Made by a program: the position numbers and the translations under genes
The notes under the pieces: model-generated
The model's input: only the letters and a program-made list of their open reading frames with translations
What the model was told of the DNA's origin: nothing
The model's database searches: none
Shown: positions 3,642-23,657 of the stretch, piece by piece
Layout of the letters: every line of letters begins with the position of its first letter
Numbering within the stretch: the stretch's first letter is position 1
Assembly: GCA_041390025.1 (NCBI GenBank)
Contig: JAWKQR010000029.1
Location: forward strand, 5,787-29,786
Length of the DNA: 24,000 bases
Direction of reading: 5' to 3'
From: a bacterium
GTDB lineage: Bacteria; Myxococcota_A; Bradymonadia; Bradymonadales; Bradymonadaceae

Positions 3642-3926
3642 ATGGCGCTGTGGCGTCTGCCCTATCTGCTGATCCTCGCCTACCGGCGGCTGCTCTCGCC
3701 GCTGCTGCCGTCCACGTGTCGTTTCCACCCGAGCTGCTCGGCCTACGGCCTGGAGGCCCTGCGCACCCACGGCCTGCTGCGGGGCTCGTGGTTGACGGTG
3801 CGGCGCGTGGCCCGCTGCCACCCCTGGCATCCCGGCGGCCTGGATCCCGTGCCCCCGGCCCGCAGCGGCGCCTGCCCGTCGTGCCCGCCCCCATCCCCGA
3901 CCCACGGAGAAACCGCCCATGGATAG
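3642..3926 (+). CDS. yidD: Membrane protein insertion efficiency factor YidD
   Basis: Characteristic sequence [65 protein letters not shown] 3642 is preferred over the TTG at 3636. The gene overlaps the yidC start by 8 nt. Confidence 0.9.
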
Positions 3927-5715
3927 GCGCACCGTTCTGGCCTTCGTCCTGATCTTCATCATCCTGGTGGGCTCGCAGGAACTGCTGCGCCGGCTCTACC
4001 CGAAGCCGGCCGCCACGGCGGGCGCCGACTCCACGGCCGTCGTCGCCGAGCCCGCCCCCGCCCGCCCGGAGGCCGGCCCCGTGGGCGTGCAGGCCGACCT
4101 GGGCGTGCCCGGCGGCGGCGACCCCGCGGCCGCGATCGCCACCGACGGCGAGCTGAACAGCCCCGCCGACGCCCTGCGCCTGGTCAACGAAGCCGCCCCC
4201 GCCCTGGTCACCGTCACCACCCCCCTCTACCGCGTCCAGGTGGCCACCGTGGGCGGCCGCATCGTCAGTTGGGAGGGCCTGCAGTACGAGCACTGGCAGG
4301 GCGGGCCCGTGCAGCTGGTGCCGGCCGAGAAGCCGCAGTTCGGGGCCGACGCCCTGCTGTTCGCGGGCAACCAGCTGGATCTGGGCGCCGCCGTGTTCCG
4401 CACCGACGCCACCACCCTGGACGTGCGCGAGGGCGCCCGCTCGCTGGCGCTCTTCGCCTCCCTGGCCGGCGGCCTGGAGGTGCGCAAGACCTACACGTTC
4501 CACGCCGACGGCTACGGCGTCGAGGTGGACTACGCCCTGGTCAGCGTCGACGGCGGGCCCAGCCGCCGCGCCCTCGAGCTGCTGGGCCGCCCCCAGGACT
4601 TCCGCTTCGCCTGGAACCAGGGCATCAACCCCACCGAGCGGAACCAGAAGATGGAGCAGACCGCCATGCGCGCCGTCGCGCGCGTGGGCGACGAATACCT
4701 GGCCAAGAGAAGGATGGATCTGAAGAAGGGTGAGGAGAAGGTGCAGGAGCAGCGGCGGGGCTCGGTCCGCTTCGCCGCCCTCCAGGACCGCTACTTCACC
4801 ATCGCGGGCGTCGTTCCCTGGGAGCAGGGGGAGGCGGTCGAGGGCACGATCCGGCTGGACGGGGACAAGGCGCACGACGCCCAGACCTGGTCCATCGACG
4901 TGCCGGCCCGGCGCGGCGTCGGCGGCGAGATCGCCGTCGCGCGCCTCGACCTGTACATCGGCCCGCAGAAGGCCGAACTGCTCAGCGTGTACAACCAGGG
5001 TCTGGAGAAGTCCATGGACCTGGGCTGGAAGATCTTCCGCCCCCTCACGGAAGTCGTGCTGTGGGGGCTGGATTTCGTGCACCGGTACATCCCGAACTAC
5101 GGGGTGATCATCATCATCTTCTCGGTGCTGACGCGGTTGGCGTTCTTCCCGCTGAACCGCAAGTCGACGGAATCCATGAAGAAGATGCAGGAGCTGCAGC
5201 CCAAGCTGAAGGCCCTCCAGGAGAAGCACAAGGACAACAAGGAGAAGCTGAACGAGGCGACGATGAAGCTGTACCGGGAGGAGAAGGTCAACCCCATGGC
5301 CGGCTGCCTGCCCCTGCTCGTCCAGTCGCCGGTGTTCATCGCCCTCTACCAGGCGCTGAACCACACGATCGAACTGCGCCGCCAGCCGTTCGTCCTGTGG
5401 ATCAAGGACCTCTCCCAACCCGACGCCCTGGCGCAGGCTGCCGTTCTCGCTGCCGATCATGGGCTCGGACCTGAACGTGCTGCCTCTCCTGATGGGCATC
5501 GCCATGTACTTCCAGACCAAGATGACCCCGACCAGCGGCGCGGCCGGCCAGATGGCCGCCATGAACGCGATGATGCCGCTGATCATGGTCGTCTTCTTCT
5601 ACAACATGCCGTCGGGGTCTGGTCCTCTACTGGCTGATCAGCACCATCATGCAGGCCTACCAGAGAGCGGCAGATCCACCGGGCAGCGCCGAGTCAAGGA
5701 GCACAGACAGCATGA
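3919..5715 (+). CDS. yidC: Membrane protein insertase YidC (long, diderm-type periplasmic domain); the 3' end is broken by at least 3 frameshifts
   Basis: ORF 3919..5637 has an N-terminal TM segment, a large P1 domain and the conserved core ([76 protein letters not shown]). After ~5435 the conserved sequence continues in other frames: [31 protein letters not shown]...FFYNMPSG, then [15 protein letters not shown], with a stop at TGA 5713-5715 overlapping the jag ATG. Confidence 0.9.
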
Positions 5716-7524
5716 CCGACAAGATCGAGATCCAGGGCAAGACCGTCGACGAGGCGGTGAGCGAGAACCCTGCTGCGCATGGGCGCCCGCCGCGACGAGG
5801 TGGACGTGACCGTGCTCGAGGAACCCAAGAACGGCTTCTTCGGCTTCCTGGGCGGCCGCCCCGCCCGCGTGATCGTCCCGCCGGCGCGCCAGCGGACCCG
5901 CAGGGCCAGGCCAACGACTTCCGCGTGGACAGCAGCGATCACCCGGCCCACGAGGCTGGGCAGCGGCGACGGCCGCGGCGGCACCCGCCGGCGGGGCGGT
6001 CGCGGCCGGGGCGGCGAGCGCGAGGGCGGCGAGCCGCAGCGAAGGCCGCAGCGAAGGGGCGCAGCAGGGGAGCCGCGGCGAAGGCCGGGGTCGGCGCAGT
6101 GGCAGGGCCGCGGCGAGCCGGAACGAAGGTCGGAACGAGGGCCGGGCGAAGGCCGGAGCGAAGGCCGGAGCGCAGAGGGTCGGGGCCGAGCGCCGGGGCC
6201 GTCGGGACGACGGCCGCCGGGACGACAGCCGGCGCGGCGAAGGCCGCCAGGATGAAGCCCGCGGCGACGGAAGCCGCCGCGAGGACAGCGGCCGCGGCGG
6301 CCGCGAGGCCGCGGCTCCCGGGGGGCGCAGGCGCGGCCAGGAGAGGAACCAGGAGCGCAACCAGGACCGTGGCGACGTGCGGGCGGCGGCCGGCGAGGCG
6401 CCGCGCGGCGACGACGCGTCGGCCGACAAGCGCGACAGCAGCCGCACCGGCGGCAGGGTCGCCGTGGTGGCCGGGGCGGGAGCGGTTCCGGGCGCGAAGG
6501 CCGGCCGCAGCCGCTGGCCGAGGCAGGTCGCCGCTGGACATGGACCACGACAACCTGCAGAGCATCGCCGCCGAGCAGGCCAGATTCCACGCGGATCCAG
6601 GCCCAGGGTAGCCGAGGAGACCGAGGAGGCGCAGCCCGAGGCCGAGGCGGCCGGCGACTTGAAGCGCGGCGAGGGCCACAGCCAGGGCCGGCGCGGCGGG
6701 CGTTCGCGGGGCGGCCGGGGCCGGCGGCGCGACGACGAGCGCGAAGGCGCGCGGGAGGGCGCGCGGGAAGGTGCGCATGAAGGTGCGCGTGAAAGTGCGC
6801 GTGAACGCATCCGACGTTGCGCCCCACGGCGAAGATTCGCAGCCGAGCGCGAGGGCGGCGGCCGGCGGCCGAGACGGCCAACGGCGAAGGCAGGCCATCC
6901 TGCCGGTGAGCGCGCCCGAGGATCGGTCGCGGTCGAGCGCGCCCCGGCGGCCGCCCTGGTGCCGGACAGGGAGATCGCCCTGGGCATCAAGGCGGTGGCG
7001 TATGCCCAGCCGAAGCGCGGCCTCGACAGGCGGCCCTCGACGCAGGCCTCACGGAGAGCGGCTTCGGGCATGCTCGTGCGCGCGGGCTTCCCCTGCCGCT
7101 GCGAGGTGCGGCCGGGCGAGTACCGCATGGTGCGGGTCGTCACCGACGACATCAGCGCCGGCATGCTGATCGGTCGGCACGGCCAGACCATCGACGCCGT
7201 CGAGCACCTGGTCGAGCGCATGGCCAGCACCGCCGCGGGCGACCGCGTGCGCATGAACCTGGACATCAACAACTACCGCCGCCGCCGCGCGAGCTCGCGC
7301 TGCAGGGCCGGGTCGACCAGGTCGTCGCCGAGGTCGCGCGCGACCGGGCAGGACGTGCACCTGGAGCCCATGGACGCGCGCGAGCGCCGCCTCGTGCACC
7401 TCGAGGTCGCCGACCACGAGGGCCACCACCACCCTGGACGGTCGCGGGCGCCGGTGGCAAGCACGTGGTGGTCGGCCTCGACGACGGGACGATCCGTCGG
7501 AGGAGGAGGAGGCCGCGGCGCTGA
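5712..7524 (+). pseudogene. jag: Jag/KhpB-type RNA-binding protein (Jag_N + KH + R3H) with a very long Arg/Gly/Glu-rich linker; several frameshifts
   Basis: The N-terminus [16 protein letters not shown] continues in another frame as MGARRDEVDVTVLEEPKNGFFGFLGGRPARVIV (Jag_N). The KH core is GMLIGRHGQTIDAVEHLVERM. The R3H part is HLEPMDARERRLVHLEVADHEG...GKHVVVGLDDG, with a stop at 7522-7524. The position after yidC is conserved synteny. The frame through 5.9-7.0 kb cannot be resolved by eye. Confidence 0.7.
6743..6802 (+). repeat. Five tandem 12-nt units GAAGGYGCGCRY inside the jag low-complexity linker
   Basis: Units read directly: gaaggcgcgcgg / gagggcgcgcgg / gaaggtgcgcat / gaaggtgcgcgt / gaaagtgcgcgt. 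They encode EGAR-EGAR-EGAH-EGAR-ESAR. Similar short tandem units occur at 6121-6171 (cgaaggccggag x2). Confidence 0.8.
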
Positions 7525-7662
7525 ACCATGCCGAGTCGGCCGATGACGCCGCCGACGCGGTCGAGGAACGAGGCGGCCGGGCGCCGACGCTGACCGGTCC
7601 GTGGTCACGGATGCGGGCGGCGCCCGGCGCCGCCCCTTTCGTCTGTCCGGCTGGAGGAAGCG

Positions 7663-9005
7663 ATGCACGACGCCACGATCGTCGCCCAGGCGACCCTGAG
7701 GGGGCGGCCGGCCTGGCGGTGGTGCGCCTGAGCGGTCCCGACGCCGTGGCGGTGGCCCGGCGCGTGCTGCGCAGCCGGCGCTTCGCCGCCGGCGGTCAGC
7801 CACGCCGTGGTCCAGGCCGTGCTGCACCACCCGGACGACCCGGCGCGGATCATCGACCGCTGCCTGGTGCTGACCCTGCTGGAGGCCGCGCTCCTACACG
7901 GGCGAGGACACCGTCGAATTCTTCCTGCACGGCGGCCGGGCCGTGGCCCGGCCGGAAGGCCGGCCGCCTACCCGCGCCGCCGGCGCCATGCCCGCGGCCG
8001 CGGCGAGTTCACCCGGCGCGCGTTCCTGGCCGGACGGCTGAGCCTGGACCAGGCCGAGGCCGTGGCCGACCTGATCACCGCCGAGGGCGAGCAGGCGGCG
8101 CGGGGCGCTGAACCAGGCTGCGAGGCGGCCTGGCCCGCGAGGCACATGGGCCGCGATCGAGCACCGCTGCTGGACCTGCTGGCGCGCATCGAGGGCAGGC
8201 GTTCGAGTTCCTGGACGAGGACGGCGTCAGGGTCGCACCGCTCGCCGCGGCGGACGAGTGTTCGGACGCCGCGGTCGCGGGCATCGACCGCCTGCTGGCC
8301 ATGGCGCCGGCGGGCCGCCTGCTGCAGGACGGCGTGCAGGTGGTGCTGGCGGGCCCGGTCCAGCGCGGGCAAGAGCGCCCTCTTCAACGCCCTGGTCGGG
8401 GACGAGCGGGCCATCGTCGGCGCGGAGCCCGGCGACCGCGACGTGGTCTCGGCACGGGTCGTGCGCGGCGCTACCGTGTTCGTGCTGCACGACACGGCGG
8501 GGCTGCGTGACGACGCGGGCCGCGTCGAGCGCAAGGGCATCACGCGCATGCGGCGCCGGGTGGCCGAGGCCGACATCGTGCTGGCGGTGGGCGAGGACGC
8601 GCCGCCGACGGTGCCGACAGGCGGCGCGGCGACCATCGCGGTGCGCAGCAAGGTGCGACCGGGGCGGGACCACGCCGGCGGGTTCGCGGTGGCGACGTCG
8701 GGCCTGACCGGCGAAGGTGTGGGCGCGCTGTGGGCGGCCATCGAGGCCGCGGTGGCCAGCCTGCGCCTGGACGACGCGGTGGCGCTGGGCGTGGTGCTCA
8801 ACGAGCGGCACGCGGCGCGCCTGGACGAATGCCGGCGCGAACTGGCCGAACTGGCGGCGATGGCGCGCGGCGCCGCGCCGCCCGGAGCCGAGGTGCTGGG
8901 CTCGCTGCTGGCTTCGATCCTGGCCCGGCTGGGCGAGGTGACGGGGCGCGTGTTCTCGGAGAACCTGCTGAACGCGGTGTTCGCGAAGTTCTGCGTGGGA
9001 AGTGA
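7663..9005 (+). pseudogene. mnmE: tRNA modification GTPase MnmE; at least 6 frame switches
   Basis: Conserved blocks are spread over three frames: MHDATIVAQAT, GLAVVRLSGPDAVAVARRVL, RSYTGEDTVEFFLHGG, GEFTRRAFLAGRLSLDQAEAVADLI, the P-loop SSAGKSALFNALVG, LHDTAGLR and the C-terminal FAKFCVG. The expected ending FCVGK-stop is restored by adding one A to GGAAGTGA at 8998-9005. The G2 motif reads PGDRDV where GTTRD is expected, a net 3-nt loss. Confidence 0.85.
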
Positions 9006-9012
9006 CCTGCCG

Positions 9013-10930
9013 ATGAGCAGCAGGTTCGACATCATCGTGGTGGGCGGGAGCCACGCAGGCATCGAGGCGGCCCTGGCGGCCGCGCGCCTGGGCGCACGCA
9101 CGGCGCTGGTGACCCCCACGACCCGCAGGAAGTCGGGCGCATGCCCTGCAACCCGGCCATCGGCGGCCTCGGCAAGGGGCACCTGGTGCGGGAGCTCGAC
9201 GTGCTGGGCGGCGAGATGGGCCGCGCCATCGACGCGACGGGCATCCAGTTCCGCGTGCTCAACCGCAAGAAGGGTCCCGCGGTGCAGTCGCCGCGGGCCC
9301 AGGCCGACAAGCACCGCTACCAGGCGGCCATGGTCGCGACGGTGCACGCCGAGCCGGGGCTGACGGTGATCGCGGGCGACGTGGCGGGCCTGGACGTCGT
9401 GCCCGACCGGGACGGGCGCACCCGCTTCGTCGGCGTGGTGCTGGGCGACGGCCGCCGGATCGCGGGCGCGCGCGCGGTGCTGGGCACGGGCACCTTCCTG
9501 CAGGGCCTGATGCACGTGGGCGACCGGCGCACGAGCGGTGGGCGCGAGGGCGCGGCCAGCGCCGAAGGCCTCAGCGGCAGCCTGCGCGACTACGGCTTCG
9601 CGCTGCGCCGCCTCAAGACGGGCACGCCGCCGCGGTTGCGGCGCGACAGCATCGACTTCGCGCGCCTGGCCGTGCAGCCGGGCGACGACCCGCCGACGCC
9701 GTTCTCGTTCCGCACGGGCGACTTCGCGCCGGTGCAGGACGTGTGCTGGCTGGCCTACACCAACGCCGCCACCCACGCGTTGATCGCGGGTTCGCTGGAC
9801 CGTTCGCCGCTGTACGGCGGCGCGATCGCGGGGCGCGGGCCGCGCTACTGCCCATCCATCGAAGACAAGGTCGTGCGCTTCGCCGACAAGGAGCGCCACC
9901 TGCTCTTCCTCGAGCCGGAAGGGCGTGACACCGACGAGATCTACGTCAACGGCCTCTCGACCAGCCTGCCGGCGGACGTGCAGGTGGCGATGGTGCGGTC
10001 GGTGGAGGGACTCGAGCGCGCGGATCTCGTGCGTTGCGGCTACGCGGTGGAGTACGACAGCGTGCCGTCGTGGCAGATCCTGCCCAGCCTGGAGACGAAG
10101 CCGGTCGCCGGGCTCTTCCTGGCGGGGCAGATCCTGGGCACCTCGGGCTACGAGGAAGCGGCGGCGCAGGGGCTGGTGGCCGGCGTCAACGCCGTGCGCA
10201 GCCTCGACGGCGGCGCGCCGTTGGCGCTCGGACGCGACGAGGCCTACATGGGCGTGCTGGTGGACGACCTCGTCACGAAGGAGATCGACGAGCCCTACCG
10301 CATGTTCACCTCGCGCGCGGAACATCGCCTGCATCTGCGCTGCGACAACGCGGAGGAGCGGCTCACCGGCACGGCCCTGGCGCTGGGGCTGCTGAGCGAC
10401 CGCGACGCGCGCCTGCTGCGGGCGCGGCGGGAGTTCGTGGCGGCGGTGGAAGCCGCGCTGGCGCGGGCGACCGTGGACGACCGGCCGCGCGGGTTGCGGC
10501 TGCCGGCGACGGACTGGCTGCGGCACCCGCACGCGCGGCTGGCGGACACTCGGCGCGGTTGATGGGGTTGATGATGAATACGATATGCATTAAACCATAT
10601 GAATCTGCGAGGTTGTTGGGGGGGTGGCGGGCGACCGGCGCCGTGCCGGGCGGCCCTCGAGCAGATCGAGAATGCGCACCGCTACGACGGCTACATCCAG
10701 AAGCACAACAAGGCAACGCGGCCAGGGAACACCTGGGCAACCTCGAGCGCCGGCCGACCTGGACTACCAGGCGGCCGAGGCGCTCAGCTTTCCGAGGCCC
10801 GGGAGAAGCTGACGCGCATGCGCCCGACCACCCTGGGCCAAGCGGGGCGCATCGACGGGGTGCGGAGCCGGCGACCTGGCGGTGCTGGCGGTGGTGTGCG
10901 CCGGCACCGAAGCGGCGGCGGCGGGGGATG
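9013..10930 (+). pseudogene. mnmG: tRNA uridine 5-carboxymethylaminomethyl modification enzyme MnmG (GidA); at least 5 frame switches and a ~43-nt AT-rich insertion. The 3' end is approximate.
   Basis: FAD-binding N-terminus MSSRFDIIVVGGSHAGIEAALAAARLGARTALVT. After a shift at ~9125, ORF 9141..10562 follows (MPCNPAIGGLGKGHLVRELDVLGGEMGRAID...TGTPPRL...GPRYCPSIEDK...FLAGQILGTSGYEEAAAQG...FTSRAEHRLHLR). The C-terminal blocks EQIENAHRYDGYIQK, LDYQAAEALSF, EAREKLTRMRPTTLGQAGRIDGV lie in other frames after 10,650. Confidence 0.9.
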
Positions 10931-11630
10931 ACGATGCGGCCAATGACTTCGCGCCGATCGTCGCGGCGTACCGCGCCGAGGTCTGCGCTGGAACCGCCAG
11001 ATCAGCCTGATTTCGCGCCAGGACACCGCGGCGACCCTCGACGAGCTGCTGGCCCAGTGCGCGCGCGCGCGGCGGACGGCTGCTGGGCGCCTGTCCGTCG
11101 GCACGGGGCCGGTGCTGTATTGCGACCTGGGATCGGGCGGCGGGTTGCGGGCGTCCTCTGGCACGCCACCTGCAAGGAGCGGGCGCCGGGCTCACCACTT
11201 ATATGGTGGAGCCGCGCGCGCGAGAAGCGAGGCCTGGTTCCTGCGGCGGGTGGCCCCGCTGGCGGGGGCTCCGGCCTACCACAGGTGCTGGAGGTCGCTG
11301 GGGGTGAGGTGGCGGCGGATCGCGCCCGGACGACGCGGCGATCGCCTTGATCTCCCTGAAGGCCCTGCGCTTGACCGATCCGGAGATCCTGGCGGGCCTG
11401 GGCGCCGTGCGGCCCGCGGCGGCGACCCTCCGGCAGATCGTCATCGCCCGGTTCCATCCGGTCGACGAGGTCCTGACCCCCGCGCTGAGCCGGGGAGCTG
11501 GCGATCGCGGGTCGGGGCGGCGGCTGGGGGCGTGGACCGGCGCGGGGGCGGAGATCCTGCCCCGTGGTCGGGCACGCCGGCCCCGAAGGCGGCCCTCGTC
11601 GTGTGCCGCTACGTTCCGGCGGGCGCCTGA
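10928..11630 (+). pseudogene. rsmG: 16S rRNA (guanine527-N7) methyltransferase RsmG (GidB); several frameshifts and an uncertain start
   Basis: Fragments in different frames: RWNRQISLISRQD, VLYCDLGSGGGL (SAM motif), VEPRARKAAFLRRV-type block, ISLKALRLTDPEILAGL, and the end ...ALVVCRYVPAGA-stop at 11630. The position between mnmG and parA is conserved synteny. Confidence 0.65.
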
Positions 11631-11804
11631 TCGTTGGTCCGCATGGAACATCGCCCTCGGCCGGCTGCTGCCGTCCCTGGCGCTGCGACCGACTACGTGG
11701 TCGACCCTCAGCAATCGATATCACCGACGCCGCCCGCTCACCGGCGGTACATTGGCGCTTCTGCGCGGCCTTGTTGCCCATCACACCCGGTCCTGAGGTC
11801 CGCC

Positions 11805-12566
<762 letters not shown>

Positions 12567-12653
12567 GTTTAGCGCGACATCACGCTTCCCCCAGTATTTG
12601 ACCAACGCGATGTTGCTTCGTGCTTCAACGGTGACTGTCATGCGGTGTTCCGT

Positions 12654-13229
12654 TCAACGATGGGAAAGGCCGTCCAACAGCAGTTGATGCATCAGGTCGA
12701 GCTCTTGAAACAAGTTGGAGAACGTCTGGTGGTAGAGCAGCGGGGGAGTGAAGGTGGCGTACGCCCTCAGAATCGCAGTCGCCGCAAGGTCTGGGTCGTG
12801 GATGGCAAAGTCCCCACTCATCGACGAGCCGCGCAGAAACTCCGCGATGACCTGCCGCTGCGCCGCCTTGAACGCTTCGAACTCGTTCTGAACGGCTTCG
12901 CAGCTGCAGTGAATCAGGTCACTCGCGTGCGCACCGTGATCGGCGACCTCGATGAACGCGCGAACCCGAGCCGTCATCATTGCCCGAAACCGGTCGTGAC
13001 AGGAGCCTTGGGACTGCGACGCGTCACGCATCGCATTCAGGATGCGTTCGTGCCGCTCGCTGGCTAACCGCGCCACGATGGCGTCTTTGGATGTGAACTC
13101 GAGGTACACGGTCCCGACACCAATGCGCGCTTCGCGCGCGATGTCCGAGATCGTGGTCTTGGCGACACCGTAGTGCGCTACGAGCCTTTCGGCCGCGAGA
13201 AGAATCTTATGTTGGCGGTCGTCATCCAT
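12654..13229 (-). CDS. TetR/AcrR-family transcriptional regulator
   Basis: N-terminal HTH: [50 protein letters not shown] 13229 (MDDDRQHK...) is preferred over the listed TTG at 13319 because it gives the usual short lead-in to the HTH. The gene is divergent from lon. Confidence 0.85.
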
Positions 13230-13347
13230 CGATTGTGCAGCCGTGAACGTTTTCTTCAATTGCTCATGGTAAGGCGACCTAAGGGTCAGCGCAACTCGAC
13301 CATGTTGAATCCTGACCAAAAACTTAACATCTATCTCTTGACTGAGC

Positions 13348-13374: not shown

Positions 13375-13424
13375 CGTCATTTATCTCAATGGCGAATCTG
13401 GCCTCAGGCCACGAAGGAGCAAGC

Positions 13425-15776
13425 ATGAACTCGACTACGTATCCCCTCATCCCGATGAGGAATCTGGTCCTCCAACCGGGGACCGTCTTGAGTGTCACCG
13501 TGGGCCGCGCCAAGTCGGTCCGATTGATCGAAACCCTTAAGGAGTCCGACCTGCTGGTTGCAGGCGTGCAGCGGGACCCGGAGCTGCGTGACCCCGACTT
13601 TTCGGACCTTCACCCGGTCGCGACTCTGGCGCGGGTCATCAAGGTGGCCAAACACCCCAACGGGGCATACGCACTGGTGATCGAGGGCGTGGGGCGTTTT
13701 CAAATCGAACGTCCCGTTACGACCGAGCCGTTCTGGACCGTCGAAGGTCACGCGCTCGCCGACGAAGGCGACGACACGGCCGAAGCCGAGACGTTGGCCT
13801 CCGTGCTGCGCGAACAGCTTGAAGAGATGGCAAGCGCCGATGGCGGTGCTTTCGCAGGTCAACTTCCCGAAGACGAGGCGCCTGGCCGGCTCGCCGATAA
13901 GGTCGCCGGCGCACTTCCGCTAGATCTTCATCAGCGAGTGACCGTGTTGATGACGCTCAACTCCGCAGAGCGTCTTCGTTTGGTTGCACGGCTCGTGGCT
14001 GAAGTGCGTGCGCAGGCCTCTCTGCGTCAGGCGATTGAGGCCGAAGTTCGCGAAGAACTCAACAAGAATCACAAGGACGCCATCCTTCGCCAACAGCTCA
14101 AGGCGATTAAGAATCAGCTCGGCAGCGACGAGGAAGACACCGACGAGCTGCGCGCGAAACTCGCTGCGATCACGTTCCCCGAGGACGCAGCCAAGGTCGT
14201 GGAGCGGGAGCTGTCGCGGTTGGATTCGCTGGAGCCCAATCAGGCCGAGTACAACGTCGTTCGCAATTACCTTGAGTGGATGGCCGACCTTCCTTGGGAC
14301 ACGGCGGCGCCGGTCAAAGAAGACCTCAACGCCATCGAGGAGCAGCTCGACGCCGACCACTACGGGTTGGATGACGTCAAACAACGCATCCTTGAGCACA
14401 TGGCCGTGTTGAAACTGTCGGGTAACCCCAAGGGCACCATCCTGTGCCTCGCAGGGCCTCCCGGCGTGGGCAAGACGAGCCTTGGCCAATCCATCGCCGA
14501 GGCGACCGGACGTCCGTTCGTGCGCATCGCATTGGGCGGCGTGCGCGACGAAGCCGAGATCCGTGGCCATCGGCGCACGTACATCGGGTCGCGCCCCGGA
14601 CGTATCATCCATGCGCTTCGCAAGGCCGGCGCAAACAACCCGGTGATGCTCCTCGACGAGGTCGACAAACTGGGCAAGGGCTGGGCAGGCGACCCCGAAG
14701 CCGCGTTGCTCGAGGTGTTGGACCCCGAGCAGAACTCGACCTTCCAAGACCACTACATGGAGGTGCCGTTCGACCTGTCGCAGGTGCTGTTCATCTGCAC
14801 GGCCAACCAGCTCGAGAACCTTTCGGCGCCGTTGCGTGACCGTCTCGAGATCATCGAGGTGTCGGGTTACACCTTGGAGGAAAAGAAGCACATCGCCCGC
14901 AACCATCTGGTGCCACGGCAGCTCGCGGACCATGCGATTTCGCCCGACGCACTGACCGTCACGGACGAGGCACTTGCCCGAATGATCTCGGGGTACACCC
15001 GCGAGGCGGGTGTGCGGCAGCTCAACCGTAACATCACCAAGCTGTGTCGCGCGGTCGCGCTCGAAGTCGCACGCTCGTCTGACCCGGCTGGCGTGGTCTT
15101 GTCGGTCGATGAGGACGACGTCACCAAGTACCTGGGCAAGGTGAAATTCCACAACGAGATGGCAGCACGGACCGCCGCGCCAGGGGTGGCGACCGGTTTG
15201 GCGTGGACTCCGGTCGGTGGTGACATCCTGTTCATCGAGACGTCGAAGATGCCTGGCACCGGTCAGCTGCAGATCACGGGGCAGCTCGGTGAAGTCATGC
15301 AGGAATCGGCGAGGGCAGCCCTGACCTATGTGCGCAGCCATGCCGAGGAGCTCAGGGTTGACCCGGCGTTCCTCAAGACGCACGACGTGCACATCCATGT
15401 GCCGGCGGGCGCCGTCCCTAAGGACGGACCATCGGCAGGGGTCACGATCTTCACCGCGCTGGCGTCGTTGTTGACCGACAGGCGTGTCCGGTCGGACACG
15501 GCAATGACCGGAGAGTGTACACTCCGAGGTCGGGTGCTGCCGGTCGGGGGCATCAAGGCCAAGGTCTTGGCGGCTCACCGCGCGGGGATCAAGCGCATCA
15601 TCTTGCCGGCCCACAACATGGCCGACCTTGACGAAGTGCCTGAGGCCGCGTTGGCGGATCTGGAAATCATTCCAGCCGAGGACATGAGCCAGGTGCTCGC
15701 TGCCGCGCTAGAGGATGCCACCGGGCCGCTCGTAACCTCGACGACCGACACCACGATGTCCGAGATGTCGGTCTAG
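13425..15776 (+). CDS. lon: ATP-dependent Lon protease (LonA type)
   Basis: ATG 13425 is preceded by AAGGAG at 13412-13417. The protein has an N-terminal LON substrate-binding domain ([23 protein letters not shown]), Walker [10 protein letters not shown] (~14452-14478), Walker [10 protein letters not shown], the catalytic serine motif [10 protein letters not shown] (Ser codon 15432-15434) and the lysine motif [15 protein letters not shown]. Confidence 0.97.
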
Positions 15777-15777
15777 C

Positions 15778-16479
15778 TCACTCGACGTCGACGACCACAC
15801 GATTGTCGACGATCATCCAACCGCCTTTGCCGGCCGCGCCTAGGTAGACCCACCAAATGCGCTCGGCGGGCTGGAATTTCATCGCATCGTCCGCGCCCTT
15901 GAAGTTGCCAACGTAGCTTTCGGGGCGCGGGCACATCGCCTCCACCAGTTTCCGGTCGACCTCGAGCAGGCACAATCCACTGCCCAGGTAGTGGTACATG
16001 TAGACCTGCTGCCCCTTCTTGAGCTCGGCGTAGAATTGCTCGTCACCGGTGCGATACGACGCCCCGTAGGTGAAGCCCTCGACGCCGACGGGAGCTTTGA
16101 CCCGGTACGTCGACGGCCGAAAAATCCCAACATTTGACTGAGACCAACGAATCACCTCGCCACGCTGAAACGTCGCTTCGGCCACCGGGATGCCATTGAG
16201 GCTAGGGATGTCGACAAGCGGCACGGGCTCCGAGCCCGAATTCCACGTCAGCGTAAACCGACGTCCCTCCTCTTGGAACGGCCATCCATCGATCGTGACC
16301 AATGCCTCGGGATTGTTCGTGGGGCGCGCCACCGGGGCCTTTTCCAACTGAATTCGGTCGGTTCGCGTTGGGCCGGCCGCCAGCTCGGTCGGCGGGGCGT
16401 TGCCCACAAGTTCGTCTTGGGGTGCCGCGCACGAGGCGAGCATCAGACTAATCAAAATACAAAACGTTCTTGTCGCCAT
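15778..16479 (-). CDS. Predicted lipoprotein of unknown function
   Basis: Signal peptide with lipobox: MATRTFCILISLMLAS|C. The 233-aa product shows no family I recognise. Its ATG lies 32 nt inside the 3' end of the upstream 932-aa gene, which suggests an operon with translational coupling. Its stop is 1 nt from the lon stop (convergent). Confidence 0.6.
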   Translation of the reverse strand: MATRTFCILISLMLASCAAPQDELVGNAPPTELAAGPTRTDRIQLEKAPVARPTNNPEALVTIDGWPFQEEGRRFTLTWNSGSEPVPLVDIPSLNGIPVAEATFQRGEVIRWSQSNVGIFRPSTYRVKAPVGVEGFTYGASYRTGDEQFYAELKKGQQVYMYHYLGSGLCLLEVDRKLVEAMCPRPESYVGNFKGADDAMKFQPAERIWWVYLGAAGKGGWMIVDNRVVVDVE

Positions 16480-19246
16480 GTTGCTCCACGAGCTCCGTCA
16501 CGCGCCCTAGGACTGCGTCGCGTCGTTGCCAGAAAATCTCGAGCCGTTGTTTTTCTAGGTCGTTGGGGTCGCTAAACAGGATGGGGTTGACCCAGCTTGG
16601 TTGCAAGTGGCGTAAGCCCTCGATCATCGTTCGGCTAAACCGCGTGACCGGTTCAAACCTCGCATCGACGCGCGAGCTGACCTGAATGTGGAACGCTGCG
16701 CCGTTGTCGATCGACACAAAATGGCCGTTCGCAAACTGGTTGTTCACCCCAAAATAGGGCTCTTGCACGCTGAAGCGGTCCCAGTTGTTGGTCAGGTAGT
16801 CGAACACCAACACATTCGATAGCTCTCGCGCCACCGAGCGCGTCGTCGTTCCGTCGTCTTCGCGCAGGATGTTTCGGTAATACTCGCCGTTTTTGTACAA
16901 CATCATGCCGCGGATGTTGGCGCCCAGCGGTTGGTCTAGGTCTGGTGGCTCTTCGACACCTAGCCATGGCTCCCAAAGGTGCGTGTACTCGATGGGCCAG
17001 TCCGCAAAATGCGGCACCCATGTTTTCAAGACGCCGTATAGGTACTCACGCTCAATGCCATCCGGCCCGGGTTCTAGCACCCATGTCAGCTCGGGGAAGC
17101 GCTGGGCGTAGGTGCGCTGCTTCTCGGTATCCATGGGATACATCGCATCGAGGTCCTCGCGCGAGATGCGTGACGGTCGGCTCCAAGGCACCATAAAACC
17201 GCACGGCACGAGCTCGCAAAGACGCCACGCCGCGACTTCGGCGCGCCATCCGTCACCCCATTCGGCTTGGGCTGGTTTGAACGCGTAGACGGTTTGATCC
17301 CCGCGTTTCATCTTGAGCGACACCGAACGCCCGCCACCGAGCGCACGAATGGTGTCGAAATCGGACGCCTTGGAAAGCGTGATGGTCTTCTGCGTCAAAC
17401 GCGCGTCGTTGTTGACCGCGCGCATGTATAGCGCGTCGAGGGTTTCGTCCTCGAAGCGCGTCATGGCGGCGATGGCCTGAACGCGCGCTTCGGACCACTC
17501 CTGCGAACCAAGCGAGATCTCGATCTCGCGCAGCGCCCACGATTTGTTGCCAGGTTCACGGACGCGAAGTTCCGAGATCAACTCCCACGCGTCGCCATAG
17601 TTCTTGCGGGCAATCAGCGCATCGACCTGCTGCGCGAGTTGCTCGGTGGTCTGTGCGCGAAGCGACGCGACCGCAGCTGCGATGCCCGCTGCCCGCGTCT
17701 CGACGAGCGTTGCGGCCTGAATCGACTCAACCGGAGGCGGGGAGGGCGGCGTATCCACGGGTTTGGGTTCGCCGATGAGGTGCGGAGCCAGAAGGTAAGC
17801 TGCAGCAGCGGTCGCCATGAGGCCGATCGCGATGGGGATCAACGGAAGGCTGGATTGTTTGGGTCCCACTTCGAACAAATCGGACGGCAGGCTCGAACTG
17901 TCTGGGCCGTCTAAGGGCTCGGGCAAGCTTGAAATGCCAGGGTTTGTGGCAAGTGGGGCGTCGGGCGACGTGGGCTCTTGTGTCGCATCCGGCGAACGCG
18001 GGCTTGGCGATTCTTCGCTTCGGTCCGGCGTGGTGTCCGGTAAGCGAGGGACGGCCGGCGGGACGGATGCATCCGGCAGCCTCGCGAACGTCACGGGTTC
18101 ATCGGGCGAGTCTGCTGTTCCCAGCGCCACGTCTGGCGATGCGGGGATCGAGGGTGGCACAGGTCTGGGTTCGACCGGGTCCGGTGTGATGAGCACCTCA
18201 ACCGTCTTGGCCGCATGTGCAGAGTGTCGCTCGACCTCGGCAGACACCACCCGTAGCGCTGCCTGAGTTTGTGACGCCAACTCTTCTTCGACCCGCGCAA
18301 ACACTGGATGAAGCGGCAGCGGCATCCACCGACCACTCGGGTCCAAGACCTCGATGGCGCCGGGCCACGCACCGCGCTGCAAGACACGCGCGATGGCCGC
18401 GAGCGTCATCTTCGAAAACGTCGCATCTTGCGTTCGTAGTTCGATCCCGGCGTCGAGCATCTCCTCGCTGAACATCGTCGCGCGGATGCGTGTCTCGCGG
18501 GTCACGTCAGCCGAGGCCGGTGGCTCATCAACGGGCTCCGGCTTGCGCGCGGGGGGCTTTGGCTCGGATGGCTCTGGCCCGGATGGCTTTGGCCCGGACA
18601 GCGGCGGGAGTCGCTGCAACCGCGTTCTTAGCGCGGAACGCGAAATCTTGGGCGCTGGGGCGTCTTTCGGTTTTGGGTCTGACGGCTCGGGTGTTGGTGC
18701 CTTTGGGTGAGCTTCGGCGCGTTCGATGGGCTCGGGCGCGATGTCCTTCGGCGGTGTCGCTAGTGCCTCGGGCAGCGCAGCGGGTTTGGGAAGCTCAGCG
18801 GCCGGGGCGGGCATCTCGGGTTCGGTTGCGACCAATGGCGGCACATCGGTCTGCGACGCACGCCGCGCAAAACCGCCAGGCGCCACCGGTTCTTGCACCG
18901 GCGGGGCCGGGGGCTGCTCGGGTACATCACCGCCGATTGGGGTGAAGTTGAAGCGCGCGGCCCGTGGTGCAGGTGGCTCCTCGATAGGGCGAGTCTGTTC
19001 GCCAAGCGTCGTGACGTCGGTGAAGACTTTGGGACGTTTTGTTGGCGCCGCAGGGGTCTCGCGCCCAAACACCGAGCTGATGCCGATGGACTGCCAAGGC
19101 TGTCCTACACTCGTGTCGATCGGGGTCTTGCACTTTGGGCACGGAATGGTGCCCGACGGCGGGTTTCCGGACTTCGAGGTCAGGCGAAATCTAGACGCAC
19201 ACGCTGGGCACTGAATTTCGAATTTCTGCGGTGCACTCTCGGCCAT
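16448..19246 (-). CDS. Multidomain membrane protein: N-terminal MJ0042-type zinc ribbon, Pro-rich linker, GYF_2-like segment, single TM helix, helical region, and a C-terminal Fam20/Four-jointed-like (PI4K-II-like) atypical kinase domain
   Basis: The 932-aa ORF is intact. Zinc ribbon: CPAC-x17-CPKC at aa 13-39. aa 60-250 and 355-460 are Pro/Glu-rich. A possible GYF_2-like block lies at aa ~257-320 (MTLAAIARVLQRGAWPGAIEVLDPSGRWMPLPLHPVF). The TM helix LPLIPIAIGLMATAAAAYLLAP lies at aa ~466-487 (nt ~17783-17851). The C-terminal ~300 aa (nt ~16451-17374) carry kinase-like motifs: VYAFKP (K657), RAEVAAWRL (E670), VFDYLTNNWDRF (D823), FVSIDNGAAF (D847). Confidence 0.75.
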   Translation of the reverse strand: MAESAPQKFEIQCPACASRFRLTSKSGNPPSGTIPCPKCKTPIDTSVGQPWQSIGISSVFGRETPAAPTKRPKVFTDVTTLGEQTRPIEEPPAPRAARFNFTPIGGDVPEQPPAPPVQEPVAPGGFARRASQTDVPPLVATEPEMPAPAAELPKPAALPEALATPPKDIAPEPIERAEAHPKAPTPEPSDPKPKDAPAPKISRSALRTRLQRLPPLSGPKPSGPEPSEPKPPARKPEPVDEPPASADVTRETRIRATMFSEEMLDAGIELRTQDATFSKMTLAAIARVLQRGAWPGAIEVLDPSGRWMPLPLHPVFARVEEELASQTQAALRVVSAEVERHSAHAAKTVEVLITPDPVEPRPVPPSIPASPDVALGTADSPDEPVTFARLPDASVPPAVPRLPDTTPDRSEESPSPRSPDATQEPTSPDAPLATNPGISSLPEPLDGPDSSSLPSDLFEVGPKQSSLPLIPIAIGLMATAAAAYLLAPHLIGEPKPVDTPPSPPPVESIQAATLVETRAAGIAAAVASLRAQTTEQLAQQVDALIARKNYGDAWELISELRVREPGNKSWALREIEISLGSQEWSEARVQAIAAMTRFEDETLDALYMRAVNNDARLTQKTITLSKASDFDTIRALGGGRSVSLKMKRGDQTVYAFKPAQAEWGDGWRAEVAAWRLCELVPCGFMVPWSRPSRISREDLDAMYPMDTEKQRTYAQRFPELTWVLEPGPDGIEREYLYGVLKTWVPHFADWPIEYTHLWEPWLGVEEPPDLDQPLGANIRGMMLYKNGEYYRNILREDDGTTTRSVARELSNVLVFDYLTNNWDRFSVQEPYFGVNNQFANGHFVSIDNGAAFHIQVSSRVDARFEPVTRFSRTMIEGLRHLQPSWVNPILFSDPNDLEKQRLEIFWQRRDAVLGRVTELVEQHGDKNVLYFD

Positions 19247-21321: not shown

Positions 21322-21759
21322 TCAGCTCAACCAAGCGCGCAGCATCCATGCATCTTGTTCATGCTGCTGCGCCAAGTCATCAAGCAAGTTGACCGTCGTG
21401 TCGTCGTTGGCCTTGTCCGCAAGTTTTCGGACTTCGTTGACGTAGGTGACGAGGTTGGTCAGGTCGCTACGCAGTTCCTCGACCATCACACCGGCCTGCG
21501 GAACCTCAAGTTGTTCCTTGACCCGACTCGCGTCCAGGAACTCTCGCATCGTCGATTTTGGGCGCCCACCAAGCGCGAGCACGCGCTCGGCGATGGCATC
21601 CACGTTGAGTGCCGATGCAGTGTACATCTCCTCAAACTTGGCGTGCAGTTGGAAGAACGCGGGCCCACGCACGTTCCAGTGGAAGTTTCTAAGTTTTTGA
21701 TAATAAACAGCTTCGTCTGCAAGTAGCTGATTGAGTGCGTCGATTTTTTCGGTATTCAT
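21322..21759 (-). CDS. dps: Dps-family DNA-protection / ferritin-like protein
   Basis: ATG 21759 is preceded by AAGGAG (reverse strand of ~21767-21772). The 145-aa product reads MNTEKIDALNQLLADEAVYYQKLRNFHWNVRGPAFFQLHAKFEEMY...LLDDLAQQHEQDAWMLRAWL, which includes the Dps ferroxidase-site pattern (H..W...G..F..LH..FEE and D....E). Its stop is 1 nt from the transporter stop (convergent). Confidence 0.9.
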   Translation of the reverse strand: MNTEKIDALNQLLADEAVYYQKLRNFHWNVRGPAFFQLHAKFEEMYTASALNVDAIAERVLALGGRPKSTMREFLDASRVKEQLEVPQAGVMVEELRSDLTNLVTYVNEVRKLADKANDDTTVNLLDDLAQQHEQDAWMLRAWLS

Positions 21760-21883
21760 GGCTTCTCCTTTTGTTCGCTGTGTTAGATGCAGACCACCCC
21801 GTCGAGGTTTCAAATCCGCGATTGCAGTTGAATCCGTAGATCGGTTGGGTTTAGGTTAGATGCACCATCCACGGAGGCACATT

Positions 21884-22764: not shown

Positions 22765-22883
22765 CGGTGACGTGACGTTGCGCCCTATCGATTTCTCACC
22801 CCAACGCTATCCAAGAGGTCACACCCGTATTCTGTTGGCCAAACCTTGATTTGAAACCTGATCGTTGGCGCGCAACTCGAACC

Positions 22884-23657
22884 ATGACACGCTACACATT
22901 CGTCGCACACAGGTCGCCTTTGCACAGGTCGTCTCCCAAATCAGCGGTGGTGCTGTTTACGCGCACCCCAAAAAACGAATCGAAAGGCATCGCGCGCCCT
23001 GCGTTGGCGCGTCGGATCCACCGCGCCATGATTCTTGATGCCATCCAGAAGATGGCCCAAGCCGACGATACCTGCAGTTTAATCGTCTCAACCGATGGCC
23101 CCCTTGATGCGCCGATCCAAGAGGTCTTGGAACAGCTGTGCACCCTAGGTCGCGACGTTCGGATCTTGGTCCAATCAGGCCGCACATTCGAACAACGGTT
23201 CCTTGGAACGTTGGATGCGGTTTTTGAACGCGGGTTCGAACGAGTCGTCGCGCTGGGTTCGGATACGCCGGCGTTCAGCGCCGCTGATGTCCGTTGTGCA
23301 TTGTTAAGCGACCAACTCACGGTTGGCCCCTCGCGCGACGGCGGTTTCTATTTGGTCGGACTTTCGGCCGACGAGGTCGGCCTTCTGCGCGGTCTGCCGT
23401 GGCGAACCACTGGCGTGTTCAAGTCGCTGTTCCAACGCGCTTGTCACATGACCGTTCTCTCCACGCGCGCCGATGTTGACTCGCCCCAAGACGCGAAGAC
23501 CCAGTGGACGTTGTTGTGTCGTCTCGTGGTCGAGCAGCTCGGGGAACTCCCCGATCACAATGTCCAGATTCCTTTCAAAGATTGTCCGCCGCCTCCTCAA
23601 GCCCCCCACCGGCTCCCGCGGCTGATGCGCGGTCCTCCTGTCATTTCGCTCGTCTGA
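22884..23657 (+). CDS. DUF2064 / TIGR04282-like GT-A-fold (MobA/CofC-like nucleotidyltransferase-like) protein
   Basis: ATG 22884 is preferred over the TTG at 22851. Pattern AVVLFTRTPKNESKG...QSGRTFEQRF...VVALGSDTPAFSAADV...TVGPSRDGGFYLVGL...LPWRTTGVF matches my memory of the DUF2064 layout (K.P.pG.vKTRL ... liGsD.P ... gPa.DGGyyLlG ... i.Wst..v). The match at the first motif is divergent. Confidence 0.65.
   Translation: MTRYTFVAHRSPLHRSSPKSAVVLFTRTPKNESKGIARPALARRIHRAMILDAIQKMAQADDTCSLIVSTDGPLDAPIQEVLEQLCTLGRDVRILVQSGRTFEQRFLGTLDAVFERGFERVVALGSDTPAFSAADVRCALLSDQLTVGPSRDGGFYLVGLSADEVGLLRGLPWRTTGVFKSLFQRACHMTVLSTRADVDSPQDAKTQWTLLCRLVVEQLGELPDHNVQIPFKDCPPPPQAPHRLPRLMRGPPVISLV

Follow-up and report, generated by a model that had tools for sequence, protein, structure and literature searches.

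Do the Fam20 kinases, which produce most of the secreted phosphoproteome of animals, have relatives in bacteria? Reviews of these enzymes and the study 'Structure and evolution of the Fam20 kinases' describe an animal-wide family and mention no prokaryotic members, and a survey of the Legionella kinome treats FAM20 as eukaryote- or Metazoa-specific. The question is raised by a single gene in a 24,000-nucleotide stretch of DNA (the window; contig JAWKQR010000029.1 of assembly GCA_041390025.1, positions 5,787 to 29,786) from a bacterium of the Bradymonadaceae (Bradymonadia, Myxococcota_A). The gene, on the reverse strand at window positions 16448–19246, encodes a membrane protein of 932 amino acids, and a prediction made from the sequence without database searches (the original prediction) had proposed that the last ~300 residues resemble human Fam20C motif by motif. 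Profile searches, profile–profile alignment and structure comparison bear that likeness out: the C-terminal domain is a remote homologue of animal Fam20A, Fam20B and Fam20C with a protein-kinase-like fold, and no family of solved structure is as near to Fam20 as this bacterial one.

A remote bacterial homologue of the Fam20 kinases

Searched alone, the window protein gives a sub-threshold match to the Pfam Fam20C family (PF06702; E=0.19, 11.8 bits) that falls on the catalytic segment, residues 620–932 by themselves score 14.4 bits, below the gathering threshold of 26.8 bits, and a phmmer search of the single sequence against the PDB found no match. The 59 close homologues of the C-terminal domain include none with a Pfam domain or an informative name. 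An untrimmed family profile (A1) was dominated by matches to tetratricopeptide repeat (TPR) proteins and was therefore trimmed to the kinase-like domain (A2). With the trimmed profile, hmmsearch against the PDB found human Fam20C (E=6e-9), zebrafish Fam20C (9e-8), Fam20A (2e-5), C. elegans Fam20 (3e-5, in an alignment that spans nearly the whole domain) and Fam20B (0.02); all matches below 0.1 were to Fam20, and no other family fell below E=0.6. Comparison by hhalign of the bacterial profile with an alignment of animal Fam20 C-lobes, built from sequences retrieved with the human Fam20C segment, gave a probability of 96% (E=4e-9) over 119 columns. When 25 members of the family were searched singly, Pfam Fam20C was the top family for 19 (best E=2.3e-4), PI3_PI4_kinase appeared in three (best E=0.017), HipA_2 in two and actin-fragmin kinase in two to three, while CotH (PF08757), the bacterial family usually cited as Fam20C-like, had no Pfam match in any of them. 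In the PDB, PI3_PI4_kinase was also met by the untrimmed profile (E=0.05–0.12), but not by the trimmed one.

Structure prediction points the same way. AlphaFold modelled residues 620–932 with a predicted local distance difference test score (pLDDT) of 96.5 and a predicted template modelling score (pTM) of 0.93, and Foldseek placed zebrafish Fam20C first among structures in the PDB (E=4e-9, template modelling score 0.56–0.58, ~15% identity), followed by the type-II phosphatidylinositol 4-kinase PI4K-IIβ (E=1e-4, score 0.40), CotH (5jd9; E=0.04, score 0.42, rank 13) and HipA (E=0.1), an order that agrees with the earlier expectation that CotH and HipA are more distant than Fam20. Across the profile and structure searches the nearest relatives are thus Fam20 proteins, with no unrelated fold. 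Because the domain falls in no unrelated fold, and because its Lys, Glu and two Asp residues lie on the catalytic positions (below), we read the resemblance as homology. On sequence grounds we nonetheless place the family beside Fam20 in the protein-kinase-like superfamily, as a remote sister in its own right and not as a Fam20 member, because it scores below the Pfam cut-off, shares ~15% identity, and is without the Kβ3–Kα3 loop and the invariant cysteines of Fam20.

Eukaryotic contamination or a recent animal-to-bacterium transfer was considered as the source of the gene and rejected, since the gene stands in a syntenic bacterial context (Na+/H+ antiporter, lipoprotein, Lon), shares ~15% identity with Fam20C and is part of a large, deeply diverged bacterial family with paralogues.

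The domain and its key residues lie as follows, with human Fam20C numbered from chain 5yh3_C by setting the Asp of L-D-N to D478 (offset 140):

16451–17389, reverse strand: Fam20-like protein-kinase-like domain, residues 620–932 (313 residues), predicted periplasmic; AlphaFold, Foldseek and profile searches
17276–17278, reverse strand: K657, ATP-binding Lys, aligned with Fam20C K285
17237–17239, reverse strand: E670, αC Glu, aligned with Fam20C E311 (ceE218 in C. elegans)
17201–17218, reverse strand: C677 and C682, a conserved pair and candidate periplasmic disulfide, the only cysteines outside the zinc ribbon
16778–16780, reverse strand: D823, catalytic-loop Asp, aligned with Fam20C D458
16706–16708, reverse strand: D847, metal-binding Asp of the D-N-G motif, aligned with Fam20C D478 (ceD387)

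Both HMMER and hhalign align the bacterial [AV]-F-K-P strand with A-L-F-K-P of Fam20C and R-A-E-[VI]-A-A with N-A-E-I-A-A; F-D816-Y-L-x-N-N-W-D823-R824 falls on F-D451-F-L-M-G-N-M-D458-R459, and S-I-D-N-G-A-x-F on H-L-D-N-G-R-G-F. D816 and R824 thereby correspond to D451, a salt-bridge Asp, and R459, both of them Raine-syndrome positions, and D847 to the Asp (D478, ceD387) that is required for Fam20 activity. Conservation, counted over 196 aligned family sequences (residue denominators 191–196), is close to complete: K657 in 191/191, E670 in 189/192, D847 in 192/193 and N848 in 193/193, with D816, N821, D823 and R824 each in 194/194 and a glycine-rich L-G-G-G loop highly conserved across the family. 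The motifs and numbering quoted in the original prediction were exact (K657 in YAFKP, E670 in WRAEVAAW, D823 in NNWDRFS, D847 in SIDNGAAF), and its assignment of K657, D823 and D847 as the catalytic Lys, Asp and Asp agrees with these alignments. Its fourth assignment, E670 as the ion-pair Glu, needs correcting. E670 aligns with the Glu of the Fam20 N-A-E motif (ceE218), and so with the canonical αC Glu; it is not the Fam20-specific pairing residue, since in Fam20C the Lys pairs with a Glu further upstream (human E306, ceE213), whose site holds Gln in the pseudokinase Fam20A. In the bacterial family the residue five before E670 is variable (S/T/E/D).

The cysteines do not follow the Fam20 pattern: C62, C63 and C122, invariant in the animal alignment, face residues other than Cys in the hhalign comparison, and the Q-C-C motif of the Fam20 C-lobe has no bacterial counterpart. 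The window protein has six cysteines in total, four in its zinc ribbon and two, C677 and C682, in the N-lobe of the kinase-like domain. This pair is conserved in 182/196 and 183/196 sequences, respectively, and is a candidate disulfide. We make no residue-level claim for a match between the C-terminal 'RR' helix and D-R-R-L of Fam20C, where hhalign is off by one residue.

Domain order and membrane topology

What precedes the kinase-like domain is as follows:

16448–19246, reverse strand: whole gene for a 932-residue bitopic membrane protein, with ATG start and stop codon at 16448–16450; open reading frame list and translation check
19118–19219, reverse strand: Cys4 zinc ribbon of the MJ0042 type, residues 10–43 (C13, C16, C36, C39), predicted cytoplasmic; NCBIfam TIGR02098
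18449–19117, reverse strand: linker 1, proline-rich and of low complexity, residues 44–266, 23% Pro; composition
18245–18448, reverse strand: GYF-like domain of ~68 residues, residues 267–334, predicted β-β-α-β-β plus a helix; local hidden Markov model (HMM), AlphaFold and Foldseek
17855–18244, reverse strand: linker 2, rich in proline and acidic residues, residues 335–464, 22% Pro; composition
17783–17854, reverse strand: single transmembrane helix, residues ~465–488; Kyte–Doolittle hydrophobicity
17390–17782, reverse strand: helical TPR-like region, residues 489–619, predicted periplasmic; family profile against TPR proteins

The reading frame (932 residues at 16448–19246) and the N-terminal zinc ribbon were both correctly called from the sequence. 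The ribbon barely passes the TIGR02098 cut-off (21.0 bits against 20.9, E=2e-4), with weak matches to Pfam Zn_ribbon families and no significant match to solved zinc-ribbon (ZnR) domains; a C-x2-C...C-x2-C pattern occurs within the first 80 residues of 55 of 193 family proteins. The name 'GYF-like' for the domain at residues 267–334 has support from the predicted fold only, not from sequence profiles. AlphaFold models this domain with a pLDDT of 96.7, and its top Foldseek match is the GYF domain of GltJ (7z3c; E=0.78, template modelling score 0.52, root-mean-square deviation 3.2 Å, 54 columns), a protein of Myxococcus xanthus; by sequence, Pfam GYF_2 was matched in one of 18 members, at E=0.2, and no PDB sequence was matched. 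A local HMM found the domain in at least 28 long-form proteins; it lies within the kinase reading frame at 14 loci and in an adjacent frame at others.

Ribbon and kinase-like domain share one stop-free frame at no fewer than 13 of the fetched loci (at least 13, with frames of 593–1484 residues), and the syntenic orthologue at locus L002 is one continuous frame. An artefactual fusion was considered and rejected: the closest relative (P0001, at locus L001) is called at 468 residues because a run of N inside a repeat breaks the frame, the equivalent of linker 2 there being an expanded QEKPS(S/G) repeat with an assembly gap (L001 8350–9010), with the N-terminal module present further upstream. Low-complexity repeats that vary strongly make up the cytoplasmic linkers. 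Linker 1, which differs in length and sequence among orthologues, holds in the window a 15-nucleotide tandem repeat of 2.9 copies at 18555–18598 (Tandem Repeats Finder).

A second type of long form (P0073, P0083, P0096, P0103, P0106, P0109, P0113, P0123, P0126 and P0137) begins with a ribbon of the pattern C-x2-C-G-x-x-N...C-x2-C-G followed by a conserved S-V-E-A-G-L-K-R-L-E-S-E-K-L-S-F-L-G, which together replace the MJ0042-type ribbon and the GYF-like domain. The Fam20-like module therefore occurs with cytoplasmic N-termini of at least two kinds. Immediately before the kinase-like domain, over columns equivalent to residues 489–619, the untrimmed profile matches consensus TPR proteins in the PDB (E=7e-9). 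The TPR family PF14559 was found here in one homologue (P0003), the window sequence alone gave no Pfam match, and the region is 63% identical to that of the L001 orthologue.

On which side of the membrane does the kinase-like domain lie? Hydrophobicity analysis finds one strong segment, residues 465–488 (19-residue Kyte–Doolittle peak 2.06; next best 1.28), almost exactly where the original prediction had placed its single helix (~466–487), and the protein has, as it had also stated, no N-terminal signal peptide. One transmembrane helix without a signal peptide would put the N-terminus in the cytoplasm and the TPR-like and kinase-like regions in the periplasm. A zinc ribbon, for its part, requires the cytoplasm. 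The paralogues speak to the same point. Short forms of ~470 residues carry a lipoprotein or secretory signal peptide (for example ...LVGC or ...LIAC) directly before the TPR and kinase module, and such lipoprotein or secreted forms, without a cytoplasmic part, make up about half of the family; among the long forms, ~66 of the 74 listed have one transmembrane peak in the equivalent position, typically ~340–370 residues before the catalytic motif. The pair C677/C682 would fit an oxidising compartment. Given the single helix, the signal peptides of the lipoprotein paralogues, this conserved pair and the cytosolic location of the ZnR–GYF part of GltJ, the kinase-like domain is almost certainly extracytoplasmic, and the earlier proposal of a kinase-like domain outside, with zinc ribbon and proline-rich region inside, gains strong support from the lipoprotein signals in particular.

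The family and its gene neighbourhoods

A scan of one genome per species yielded 146 loci, of which 80 were listed with their labels. Most of these 80 are labelled Bradymonadia or Myxococcota/Myxococcales and a minority Proteobacteria, Deltaproteobacteria, Bacteroidaceae or simply 'bacterium'; many genomes hold two to four paralogues. A search of 1.84 billion representative proteins, from which the best 150 matches were listed, returned 357 clusters at E<=1e-30 and 1427 at E<=1e-3. The family appears confined to Bradymonadia and related Myxococcota. Among P0010 and the loci L029, L032, L036, L044, L059, L060, L066, L068, L070, L071 and L080 are members from gut or rumen metagenome-assembled genomes labelled 'Proteobacteria' or 'Bacteroidaceae', together with one from a record that bears the name of a brown alga, Laminaria digitata. 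The oddly labelled members are probably mis-binned or contaminating Bradymonadia-like bacteria, and they could reflect a wider host range.

In the window the gene stands between a Na+/H+ antiporter gene and a small lipoprotein gene followed by Lon, an order kept in the closest relatives:

15778–16479, reverse strand: downstream gene for a 233-residue lipoprotein with lipobox LASC, overlapping the 3' end of the kinase gene by 32 nucleotides; open reading frame list

The lipoprotein gene lies directly downstream in the seven closest loci, at 35–67% identity, and its product matches nothing in Pfam or the PDB. The gene is probably co-transcribed with the kinase gene, and the lipoprotein is a candidate partner or substrate of the kinase-like protein. 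A promoter and terminator scan gave counts at chance level. Other paralogues have different neighbours. One group of paralogues belongs to a cluster (L081 1–8497, and also at L015, L016, L046, L064 and L077) that encodes TamB, an Omp85/POTRA protein, a purple-acid-phosphatase-like protein with a signal peptide, a 190-residue GYF-like protein and a lipoprotein kinase. The 190-residue protein (L081 6436–7008) matches the HMM of the GYF-like domain at E=1.5e-8 and has neither transmembrane helix nor zinc ribbon; its gene lies directly upstream of the lipoprotein kinase gene and overlaps it by eight nucleotides, so that the protein ends where the signal peptide of the kinase starts. The pair resembles the fused long form divided over two genes, in an arrangement kept at several loci, and because the GYF-like gene both adjoins and overlaps the kinase gene it reinforces the link between the two domains. 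The phosphatase is kept in six loci; with phosphatase and kinase both secreted and encoded close together, there is a hint of phosphorylation outside the cytoplasm that runs as a reversible cycle.

The remainder of the window has features of its own. Beyond the antiporter lie a Dps/ferritin-like gene (21322–21813, reverse strand) and a DUF2064 gene (22851–23657, forward strand); on the other side, a TetR-family regulator (12654–13319, reverse strand) is followed by Lon (13389–15776, forward strand). The stretch 3919–13319 contains yidC, jag-like, mnmE and mnmG in the order that is typical near the origin of many bacteria. The part of this region at ~6000–12000, which covers jag (KH/R3H), mnmE and mnmG, has 72–79% G+C against ~59–64% elsewhere, with AT skew of up to 0.51 at 6001–7000 and GC-rich short tandem repeats at 6033–6299 and 6739–6805. 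One open reading frame there (7807–9363, forward strand) continues without a change of frame from its MnmE domains into the start of the MnmG (GIDA) profile (first ~33 positions), and the remaining MnmG (profile positions 38–389) is read from another frame, in a second open reading frame (9141–10562, forward strand); the split near 9100–9360 points to a frameshift, an unusual overlap or an error in the sequencing.

Proposed function and comparison with known systems

We propose that the window protein is a bitopic protein of the inner membrane whose N-terminal ~460 residues (zinc ribbon, linker 1, GYF-like domain and linker 2) would lie in the cytoplasm and whose transmembrane helix would lead into a periplasmic TPR-like region and a compact kinase-like domain. 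The latter would act as a nucleotide-dependent phosphotransferase on a protein or glycan of the envelope or among secreted products, the TPR-like region probably recruiting the substrate, and the cytoplasmic ZnR/GYF-like module may link partners in the cytoplasm with where the periplasmic enzyme lies or how active it is. As a whole, a periplasmic, active Fam20-like phosphotransferase coupled to a cytoplasmic module is the best explanation of the data, to which we give a probability of roughly 60%. Within it, the domain is most likely an active enzyme, to judge from its conserved residues, because the glycine-rich loop, the Lys, the αC Glu, the catalytic-loop Asp-Arg and the Asp of D-N-G are all essentially invariant.

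Several observations weigh against this explanation. The Pfam Fam20C gathering score was reached by none of the 25 members searched singly. The Fam20-specific Glu (E306/ceE213) has no counterpart, its Kβ3–Kα3 loop being an insertion of Fam20C relative to the bacterial profile, and because both are absent the geometry of the active site may differ from that of Fam20C. Positive-inside bias around the transmembrane helix is uninformative, and the Foldseek matches of the GYF-like domain, which run from GltJ to the GYF domains of human GIGYF1/2 (template modelling score ~0.50), all have E=0.78–4.9, non-significant for so small a domain. Neighbourhoods are not conserved overall and so give no pointer to the substrate. 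The main difficulty lies in the phosphate donor, as the Gram-negative periplasm is generally regarded as ATP-free. Bradymonadia are contact-dependent predators with structures resembling outer-membrane vesicles, and for surface-exposed or lipoprotein forms prey-derived ATP is a speculative source. Finally, enzymes with a kinase fold also carry out other reactions, such as AMPylation and glutamylation.

Of the other explanations, the one that survives best, unlikely as we hold it to be, is that the domain phosphorylates not proteins but a glycan, lipid or small molecule outside the cytoplasm, for example a sugar of peptidoglycan, lipopolysaccharide or exopolysaccharide. The xylose kinase activity of Fam20B is regarded as ancestral in Fam20, and it is FAM20B specifically that the 2026 preprint discussed below ties to Myxococcota; the second-best structural match, PI4K-II, is a kinase of lipid head groups; and the bacterial domain is without the Fam20C-specific Kβ3–Kα3 'clash' loop that excludes saccharides. 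The profile, however, scores far better with Fam20C than with Fam20B (6e-9 against 0.02), and the fused TPR-like region suggests recognition of one protein by another.

That the domain is instead a non-catalytic, pseudokinase-like sensor of a ligand or nucleotide, signalling from outside to inside through the ZnR/GYF-like module, would suit the role proposed in general for bacterial ZnR–GYF proteins and the lack of an obvious periplasmic ATP supply, and Fam20A offers a pseudokinase precedent in the nearest family. We consider it improbable, since the full catalytic set, including the Glu lost in Fam20A, is essentially invariant across the 196 sequences and roughly one half of the family consists of lipoproteins or secreted proteins that have no cytoplasmic part, in which the function of the domain must be independent of transmembrane signalling. 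Very improbable is a kinase fold with other nucleotide-dependent chemistry in the envelope or on prey (AMPylation as in SelO, glutamylation as in SidJ), the lipoprotein paralogues then serving, as they could, as predation effectors where prey ATP is available: such chemistry is documented for kinase-fold enzymes and fits predators that hold several paralogues per genome, but the active-site residues keep the canonical kinase arrangement with no flipped or relocated motif, Foldseek matches to SidJ are negligible (E=0.19–1.9), SelO is not among the 50 matches listed, and the window protein has its anchor in the inner membrane of the predator itself.

With a periplasmic Fam20-like phosphotransferase as the preferred explanation, the family would offer a prokaryotic outgroup for tracing the origin of secretory-pathway kinases, and it poses a puzzle of periplasmic phosphorylation, in both donor and substrate, within a supposedly ATP-free compartment. 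It would also supply a new enzymatic output for the ZnR–GYF 'switch' module, which suggests that envelope enzymes can be connected to partners in the cytoplasm. Given the expansion of the family in contact-dependent predators, its substrates may have a part in predation or envelope remodelling. A bolder proposal, which we regard as doubtful, makes this family the prokaryotic lineage that is sister to, or donor of, the secretory-pathway kinases of eukaryotes. Its members would carry out true ATP-dependent phosphorylation of proteins or glycans in the periplasm or at the surface, where such chemistry is considered to be lacking, and in the long forms a GltJ-like ZnR–GYF switch would control it from the cytoplasm. 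If true, bacteria would have here their first kinase system that works outside the cytoplasm under transmembrane regulation, perhaps in connection with contact-dependent predation.

How does the window protein compare with systems already known? With Fam20 it shares F-D-[FY]-L-x-x-N-x-D-R followed by D-N-G, the Lys in [AL]-F-K-P, the αC Glu in x-A-E-[IV]-A-A and a C-terminal helix, as well as a site outside the cytosol, the predicted periplasm here corresponding to the Golgi lumen or extracellular space in animals. There Fam20C is the Golgi casein kinase, Fam20B a xylosylkinase and Fam20A a pseudokinase, with phosphotransfer that prefers Mn2+/Co2+ and is directed to S-x-E proteins or xylose. 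The bacterial domain differs in being smaller (313 against ~400 residues), in having no Kβ3–Kα3 loop with E306/ceE213, no dimer motif and no Q-C-C cysteines, and in being preceded by a TPR-like region; its anchor is a lipid, or a transmembrane helix with a cytoplasmic ZnR/GYF-like module, whereas Fam20 has a type-II signal anchor. CotH, HipA and the type-II PI4-kinases share the common protein-kinase-like superfold and are all clearly more distant than Fam20; CotH and HipA, as far as is known, act in the cytoplasm or the mother cell.

The cytoplasmic half finds its counterpart in GltJ (AgmX) of the M. xanthus Agl–Glt gliding machinery, which likewise has a Cys4 ribbon, a proline-rich linker, a GYF or GYF-like domain, a disordered linker, a single transmembrane helix and a periplasmic module. 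As described in 2024, GltJ runs in the order ZnR, linker, GYF, transmembrane helix, periplasmic disordered region and TonB-C, with ZnR–GYF in the cytosol; it binds MglA-GTP, MglB and a proline-rich segment of AglZ, a binding that the authors do not expect outside Myxococcales. Sequence comparison with the GltJ domains gave no significant match, and where GltJ ends in TonB-C the window protein ends in a TPR-like region and a Fam20-like kinase domain. Attia et al. found that ~44% of bacterial GYF proteins pair GYF with ZnR, which in myxobacteria is N-terminal to GYF, and that ZnR–GYF modules, probably switches, occur in fusion with membrane or receptor modules of various kinds. Full-text literature searches that combined Fam20 with prokaryotic terms, periplasm or words in Myxococc- turned up no study that characterises bacterial proteins of this kind, the sole exception being a phylogenomic preprint of May 2026 that tentatively counts FAM20B among possible Myxococcota-related eukaryotic genes. 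The architecture that the original prediction had thought uncharacterised is thus new in one part and familiar in another: the ZnR–GYF–transmembrane module was already known from GltJ-type proteins, whereas its combination with the kinase domain is undescribed, and what the locus adds is a family of predicted extracytoplasmic, Fam20-like atypical kinases in a bacterial architecture of its own.

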